From NCBI RefSeq assembly GCF_003334305.1, contig NZ_QOWS01000015.1: DNA of 64,000 nt; one strand, written 5' to 3'. This document shows positions 13,159 to 13,181 of the stretch, one piece after another (position 1 is the first letter of the stretch; each line of letters begins with the position of its first letter). The DNA comes from Escherichia coli. GTDB lineage: Bacteria > Pseudomonadota > Gammaproteobacteria > Enterobacterales > Enterobacteriaceae. A program made the position numbers and the translations under genes. The notes below the pieces were generated by a model, which made no database searches, was not told the origin of the DNA, and was given only the letters and a program-made list of their open reading frames with translations.

Positions 13159-13181
13159 GATGGCGCAATTTCTGCGCCATC
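13159..13181. promoter_or_regulatory. Perfect 9-bp inverted repeat GATGGCGCA-ATTTC-TGCGCCATC upstream of yeaQ
   Basis: Seen directly; followed by A7, no U-run in either orientation; function unknown. Confidence 0.4.

Follow-up and report, generated by a model that had tools for sequence, protein, structure and literature searches.

The interval between yoaG and yeaQ in Escherichia coli carries a perfect palindrome, and the question raised by this locus is whether the palindrome is a binding site for a dimeric regulator, an RNA structural element in the yeaQ leader, both of which had been offered in a sequence-only reading of the DNA, or something else. The window, by which we mean the whole stretch of 64,000 nucleotides that was analysed (contig NZ_QOWS01000015.1), has the gene order leuE-yeaR-yoaG-yeaQ-yoaJ-yoaK-dgcP at this site, and positions 13159-13181 read GATGGCGCA-ATTTC-TGCGCCATC, in exact agreement with the palindrome reported there. 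It starts 16 nt past the yoaG stop codon, and the yeaQ ATG (13291) follows at a distance of 110 nt, which bears out its placement between a yoaG remnant and yeaQ. The features of the immediate neighborhood are these.

11360-13107, + strand: insertion of the IS200/IS605 family, delimited by the breakpoints between K-12 RP437 and the window and by the annotation of an identical strain.
13108-13143, + strand: yoaG 3' remnant, severed by the insertion and recognized by comparison with K-12 RP437; the last 11 codons (DTENEHDVCGW) plus TAA (13141-13143).
13159-13181, + strand: stem-loop in the yoaG 3' untranslated region, with perfect 9-bp arms (13159-13167 and 13173-13181) and a 5-nt loop (13168-13172).
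13182-13190, + strand: tail of GC and A7 directly 3' of the stem (A7 at 13184-13190), kept as GC-A7-9 in E. coli, E. marmotae and two cryptic Escherichia lineages and polymorphic in length.

The insertion entered 3' of TTAT, in yoaG codon 49, and carries two divergent genes, tnpA on the - strand (11417-11848; 143 codons; annotated as a pseudogene in the identical strain) and tnpB on the + strand (11856-13064; 402 amino acids). Its left-end hairpin is CCCCGTCC-TTCA-GGGCGGGG and its right end reads ...GGAGGATGTCAA. An Rfam search returned no family at the palindrome, its sole match being a weak, sub-threshold RAGATH-18 hit within the 3' end of tnpB (12991-13034). The palindrome shares with the subterminal hairpins of IS200/IS605 elements and with TnpB omega-RNA the property of being a hairpin about 100 nt past a tnpB stop codon, but it sits 52 nt beyond the right end of the element and is unchanged in IS-free K-12. 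An origin as an IS end or omega-RNA hairpin is ruled out, because the element stops at 13107 and K-12, O157 and E. marmotae, which are IS-free here, all carry the palindrome; the sequence is native to E. coli.

Six of the nine base pairs in the stem are G-C, and the RNA has a calculated folding energy of -15 kcal/mol on either strand (z of -5.2 and -5.9), with the hairpin retained when it is folded in 61-nt and 143-nt contexts. The element has one of the two hallmarks of an intrinsic terminator, a GC-rich stem-loop 3' of a stop codon, and lacks the other, a U-rich tract of 7 to 8 nt. The 10 nt past the stem contain a single U on the + strand (GCAAAAAAAT) and two on the - strand (AACGATCGGT), and the U7 run of the - strand sits 5' of the stem, not 3', so the palindrome is no canonical terminator in either direction; nor was it called in a terminator scan of the intergenic DNA, in which the only call was the yeaQ terminator at 13553-13578. 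The sequence-only reading had said as much, and had correctly seen A7 where a U-run would be expected. One E. coli variant has GA8 as its tail, and the flank upstream of the stem, TCACCGATCGTT, is without an A-tract.

The palindrome exceeds chance expectation. With up to three mismatches allowed, its pattern has a single match in the window, where 0.07 would be expected, and perfect inverted repeats of at least 9 bp with loops of 3 to 8 nt number 11 in the window, compared with 1.4 +/- 1.4 in dinucleotide shuffles, an excess of about 8-fold. The other ten mostly resemble terminators or REP-type elements, judging by flanking U or A runs or REP-like sequence. A REP-like palindrome is present in the window, GTTCACGCCGCATCCGGCGTGAAC at 60189-60212.

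Within E. coli, the element is close to universal. It was found in 5418 of 5426 complete genomes, at exactly one place in each, with a 71-nt or 31-nt query, and the 31-nt core was identical in 4962 of these, with one difference in 38 and two in 418. A second copy was detected in none of the 5418 genomes by BLAST at E<=10, a sensitivity at which diverged copies would escape, so the palindrome does not belong to a repeat family and has no second site of near-identical sequence. REP and BIME elements are likewise intergenic palindromes, able to block 3' exonucleases and to stabilize the upstream message, but the present palindrome differs from them in being single-copy in every E. coli genome and in having no match to the REP consensus.

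Beyond E. coli, the distribution is narrow and follows the gene arrangement. Among 80 yeaQ loci from other species, yeaR-yoaG adjoin yeaQ in Escherichia only, and the palindrome is restricted to those Escherichia lineages in which yoaG abuts yeaQ; about 75 other species had no copy of it upstream of yeaQ. Further YoaG look-ups mostly returned E. coli again, and E. fergusonii lay outside the sample. Conservation across the yeaQ upstream regions of Enterobacteriaceae, which the sequence-only reading had proposed as a check, was thus not seen, the palindrome being confined to Escherichia. Local alignment of the Escherichia segment with the yeaQ-upstream regions of other genera gave P values of 0.2-0.65 against shuffles, and blastn-short with the palindrome region found chance matches of 10 to 17 nt in other genera. 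A shared 9-mer, CGTTTTATG, which a MAFFT alignment had suggested as a sign of homology, was rejected on the same local-alignment P values.

What these lineages have in common is a hairpin after yoaG. In every lineage examined, a stable hairpin lies 5 to ~50 nt past the yoaG stop codon; the sequences are nonhomologous, and most are canonical terminators. A canonical hairpin with a U-run follows yoaG in Salmonella (L009 and L087) and in loci L098 and L105, the terminator of a convergent gene follows it in E. cloacae (L088), and a U-poor hairpin follows it in locus L106. In E. albertii (L083, 1684-1760), yeaQ and the entire yoaG-yeaQ intergenic region, palindrome included, have been deleted, and the former yeaQ/yoaJ terminator now lies 6 nt past the yoaG stop codon. 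Compared with canonical intrinsic terminators, such as that of yeaQ/yoaJ in the window or that of Salmonella yoaG, the palindrome has the same dimensions and the same place past yoaG but no U-rich tract on either strand and no sequence homology. The palindrome thus belongs specifically to the yoaG-yeaQ junction of Escherichia and occupies the place at which a terminator for yoaG is found in other lineages. The 3' end of yoaG offers a small example of turnover: Salmonella and E. albertii have canonical terminators there, and E. coli has a U-less hairpin.

Comparison within Escherichia shows that it is the pairing that has been kept. The E. marmotae hairpin is GATGGCGCT-AATTC-AGCGCCATC, in which an inner pair has changed from A-U to U-A, and that of Escherichia sp. 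E1V33, from a cryptic clade, is AATGGCGC-CGTTTTAT-GCGCCATT, with A-U in place of G-C as the outer pair and a loop of 8 nt. A third Escherichia lineage (L004) retains GGCGC/GCGCC alone, as a 5-bp stem of -9.3 kcal/mol. Loop length ranges from 5 to 8 nt across the genus, and the 15 nt 5' of the stem diverge by ~40% between species, while the arms and the GC-A7-9 tail are retained. In an alignment of six distinct Escherichia sequences (A2), 92.6% of cells were paired, against 16-49% when the partners were slid; covariation on the same six sequences comprised two of nine pairs changed on both sides and one G.U, a result matched by 26 of 500 shuffles. These comparisons indicate that selection acts on the pairing, the sequence itself not being conserved, with support that is real but modest. 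Two natural E. coli variants bear on the strand. A C-to-T change in the 3' arm is found in the O26:H11/AMSHJX01 type (TGTGCCATC) and another in strain 2017-02-2CC (CCATT); both leave a G.U pair on the yoaG-sense RNA and an A.C mismatch on the antisense RNA, and for TGTGCCATC the calculated dG is -13.1 in the sense orientation and -9.6 in the antisense orientation. The variable loop, the complementary changes and these asymmetric variants together favor an RNA stem on the sense strand over a symmetric protein operator.

The yeaQ promoter lies downstream of the palindrome.

13197-13241, + strand: yeaQ promoter region, with a CRP-like box and a sigmaS-like extended -10 element; downstream limit of the yoaG 3' region.

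The CRP-like box, GTGATGCTCGTCACA (GTGA-N6-TCACA), occupies 13197-13211, 16 bp past the palindrome, and the extended -10 element, TGTGCTATGCT, occupies 13231-13241. From these elements the yeaQ start is predicted near 13248, 67 nt past the palindrome, whose center would then lie at about -78. RNA polymerase genomic SELEX places a promoter in the yoaG/yeaQ spacer (PMC3946193), and yeaQ is a CRP genomic-SELEX target (PMC3105977), a listing that fits the conserved box at 13197-13211. With the predicted promoter downstream of it, the palindrome would fall outside the leader made from that promoter. The proposal of an RNA structural element in the yeaQ leader therefore survives in its first half, since the pairing is conserved across Escherichia, and not in its second.

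The reading that narrowly commands our assent is that the palindrome is the protective 3' stem-loop of a Rho-terminated yeaR-yoaG transcript. Placed at the 3' end of the nitrate/NO-induced yeaR-yoaG message, and in the present strain capping whatever transcript exits the insertion and the yoaG remnant, the hairpin would not itself release RNA polymerase, because it has no U-tract; transcription would be stopped further downstream, most likely by Rho acting on untranslated, C-rich, G-poor RNA that starts past the stem. The 3'-5' exonucleases PNPase and RNase II would then trim the tail back to the stem, which would set and stabilize the mRNA 3' end and leave yeaQ expression to its own promoter. 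The stem-loop would in this way give the yeaR-yoaG operon a defined 3' boundary and account for the failure of yeaQ to follow the large nitrate/NO induction of its upstream neighbor. Two further features of the window are needed here.

13182-13259, + strand: C-over-G stretch, candidate rut; 23 C against 13 G (C/G of 1.77 over 78 nt, compared with 0.36-0.5 in flanking coding DNA).
23672-23696, - strand: U-less perfect hairpin of yeaG, GGCCCGGTA-ACATGTG-TACCGGGCC.

Dar and Sorek mapped hundreds of E. coli 3' ends and located the Rho-dependent ones just past stable stem-loops that have neither a U-tract nor an upstream A-tract and that are followed immediately by C-over-G enrichment and a rut, the ends being made by PNPase/RNase II trimming (PMC6061677). 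The palindrome has the sequence features of this class, namely, a stable GC-rich stem-loop past a stop codon, of terminator-like energy and size, no U-tract, no upstream A-tract, and more C than G downstream; it differs in its conserved GC-A7-9 tail. It is most likely an Escherichia-specific member of the described class of U-less 3' stem-loops. The window contains a mapped example, in that the Term-seq 3' end of yeaG (MG1655 1868879, +) lies 5 nt past the hairpin listed above. The C-rich stretch overlaps the yeaQ promoter and is not specific; it may be present for the sake of that promoter.

Published expression data are compatible with a boundary at this position. In intracellular uropathogenic E. 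coli, yeaR and yoaG were induced over 30-fold and yeaQ and the intergenic open reading frame were not (PMC4959519), and in CFT073, yoaG and yeaR were upregulated ~160-fold and yeaQ was outside the 50 most induced genes (PMC5320621); this uncoupling of yoaG and yeaQ fits a boundary between the two genes. A hypothetical neighboring open reading frame of CFT073, c2201, was induced 142-fold (PMC5320621), and if c2201 is the intergenic open reading frame, some transcript reads past the stem. Other points also count against a protective stem-loop. We take the nitrate/NO-induced yeaR-yoaG operon to be silent in the media used for the available Term-seq data. The Term-seq tables of PMC7815308, from media presumed to be noninducing, contain no 3' end at MG1655 18791xx-18794xx (-); the stem would end at about 1879366 in MG1655, as reckoned from RP437 coordinates plus 4. 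In addition, the modest covariation (26 of 500 shuffles) comes from six sequences only, the stem shrinks to 5 bp in L004 and the whole element is lost in E. albertii, and the conserved GC-A7-9 tail is no feature of the published class. The tail might serve the yeaQ promoter, as an upstream A-tract, or the RNA. The relevance of the element beyond annotation is small, and this conserved A-run past the stem is its remaining oddity.

The hairpin could instead halt or pause polymerase itself, as a weak, noncanonical intrinsic terminator that insulates yeaQ from the strongly inducible yeaR-yoaG operon, possibly with help from NusA, NusG or the following A-run. Hairpin-driven release by E. coli RNA polymerase requires a U-rich RNA:DNA hybrid; with one U in the 10 nt past the stem and no call in the terminator scan, we regard this alternative as unlikely, even though the position and dimensions of the palindrome equal those of the canonical yoaG terminators in Salmonella, L098, L105 and E. 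albertii, induction of yoaG does not extend to yeaQ, and GC-A7-9 is conserved directly past the stem. It has also been suggested that U-poor hairpins may be transition states between two modes of termination (PMC6061677), which would suit a weak terminator here.

That the palindrome has no present function, and is a relic of the rearrangement by which yoaG came to adjoin the yeaQ promoter in an Escherichia ancestor, persisting through low divergence, seems to us decidedly unlikely. Its confinement to one genus, its degeneration in L004, its deletion in E. albertii and the lack of a 3' end at the site in the Term-seq tables would all be expected of such a relic. Low divergence does not readily explain why the arms were kept while the adjacent 15 nt diverged by ~40%, why two pairs changed on both sides, or why the 31-nt core is the same in 4962 of 5418 E. 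coli genomes; nor does it account for the ~8-fold over-representation of perfect repeats of this size in the window, most of the others of which look like terminators or REP-type elements.

The tail has a place in a more speculative proposal, which we rate as improbable, that the stem-loop, the GC and the A7-9 run together form a signal, independent of a U-tract, that stops transcription or decides the fate of the RNA and by itself insulates yeaQ. Under this proposal, the encoded oligo(A) tail left by trimming might tune access by PNPase or Hfq. If it were true, a signal composed of a stem-loop, GC and A7-9 would have arisen in Escherichia when yoaG was fused to the yeaQ promoter, and it would insulate yeaQ from an upstream operon that is inducible more than 100-fold.

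A DNA operator at which a dimeric transcription factor would act, either on the yeaQ promoter from a position near -78 or on a divergent promoter, is a good deal harder to credit, although a perfect 9-bp inverted repeat whose center falls ~78 bp upstream of the predicted yeaQ start and 33 bp upstream of the center of the CRP-like box is what such an operator might look like, and three Escherichia species have kept the arms ATGGCGC/GCGCCAT. Operators of the CRP type are likewise inverted repeats upstream of a promoter, but neither the spacing nor the sequence of the palindrome is conserved in their manner: the spacing between the 8-bp cores shifts from 7 to 8 nt, the loop sequence varies, the arms change as complementary pairs and not around conserved bases, and the asymmetric changes in two E. 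coli lineages preserve G.U pairing in RNA only. The A-run between palindrome and promoter is 7 to 9 nt long, depending on the strain, so there is no fixed phasing of one to the other. Escherichia shares its conserved yeaQ promoter with Citrobacter, Salmonella and Enterobacter, three genera without the palindrome, and since each of 5418 E. coli genomes has the palindrome at a single place, there is no regulon-like second site at BLAST sensitivity. To our knowledge, the palindrome fits none of the CRP, FNR, NsrR (11-1-11), NarL, PurR/LacI-type or LysR (T-N11-A) consensus sequences. The dimeric regulator site suggested in the sequence-only reading is accordingly disfavored by the spacing change, the compensatory arms, the asymmetric C-to-T variants and the single copy; the more likely site for a dimeric regulator in the yoaG-yeaQ spacer is the separate, adjoining CRP-like box at 13197-13211. 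In Enterobacter, the corresponding CRP-like box is a perfect TGTGA-N6-TCACA.

The remaining alternative, that the element acts on the opposite strand in an antisense RNA running from the yeaQ side into yoaG, starts from a mapped end.

About 13035 in IS-free coordinates of the window (about 1928 in the K-12 locus L001), - strand: antisense 3' end (PMC7815308).

Term-seq and bicyclomycin data list this end (MG1655 1879512, +), ~125 nt beyond the palindrome, as Rho dependent and antisense to yoaG (PMC7815308), so an antisense transcript crosses the yeaQ upstream region and the palindrome. The antisense hairpin is as stable as that of the sense RNA (-15 kcal/mol), and AGAAAT, the loop sequence on that strand, is a weak -10-like hexamer ~42 nt from the center of the CRP-like box, but an antisense role is scarcely credible, given that in each of the two natural E. 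coli variants the antisense stem is broken (A.C) and the sense stem kept, that the U-run precedes the stem on that strand and makes termination impossible, and that the -10-like loop is lost in E. marmotae and E1V33.

A 39-codon open reading frame (13160-13279, +) begins at an ATG within the palindrome. From its position between yoaG and yeaQ and a reported length of ~40 amino acids, it is probably UTI89_C1993, and it is perhaps c2201 of CFT073. A small protein encoded by this frame was considered and rejected: the frame meets a stop after 13 codons in E. marmotae and is shifted by the length polymorphism of the A-run.

Salmonella and Enterobacter have a different neighbor in this position, an RyhB paralogue (Rfam RF00057; RyhB-2/IsrE in Salmonella) that lies on the other strand just upstream of yeaQ (PMC2515195).

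L009 2237-2304, L087 2604-2671 and L011 2218-2282, - strand: RyhB paralogue, with a Fur-box-like sequence, GATAATCTTTATCATT.

E. coli and E. marmotae lack the paralogue, and in them yoaG and the palindrome abut the yeaQ promoter instead.

The insertion that severed yoaG in the window appears not to be peculiar to this strain. Of 60 E. coli genomes sampled evenly, about 13 lack a yoaG annotation at the site, and tnpB adjoined it in both such genomes that were fetched, which suggests that E. coli genomes without an annotated yoaG carry the insertion. Two E. coli genomes deposited as complete have odd sequence at the yoaG target site, a T16 run exactly at that site in CP172819.1 (L096, 1345-1365) and, in CP126294.1 (L097, 1335-1385), N followed by ~40 nt of the right end of the element; both are probably assembly artifacts in which the insertion has been collapsed.
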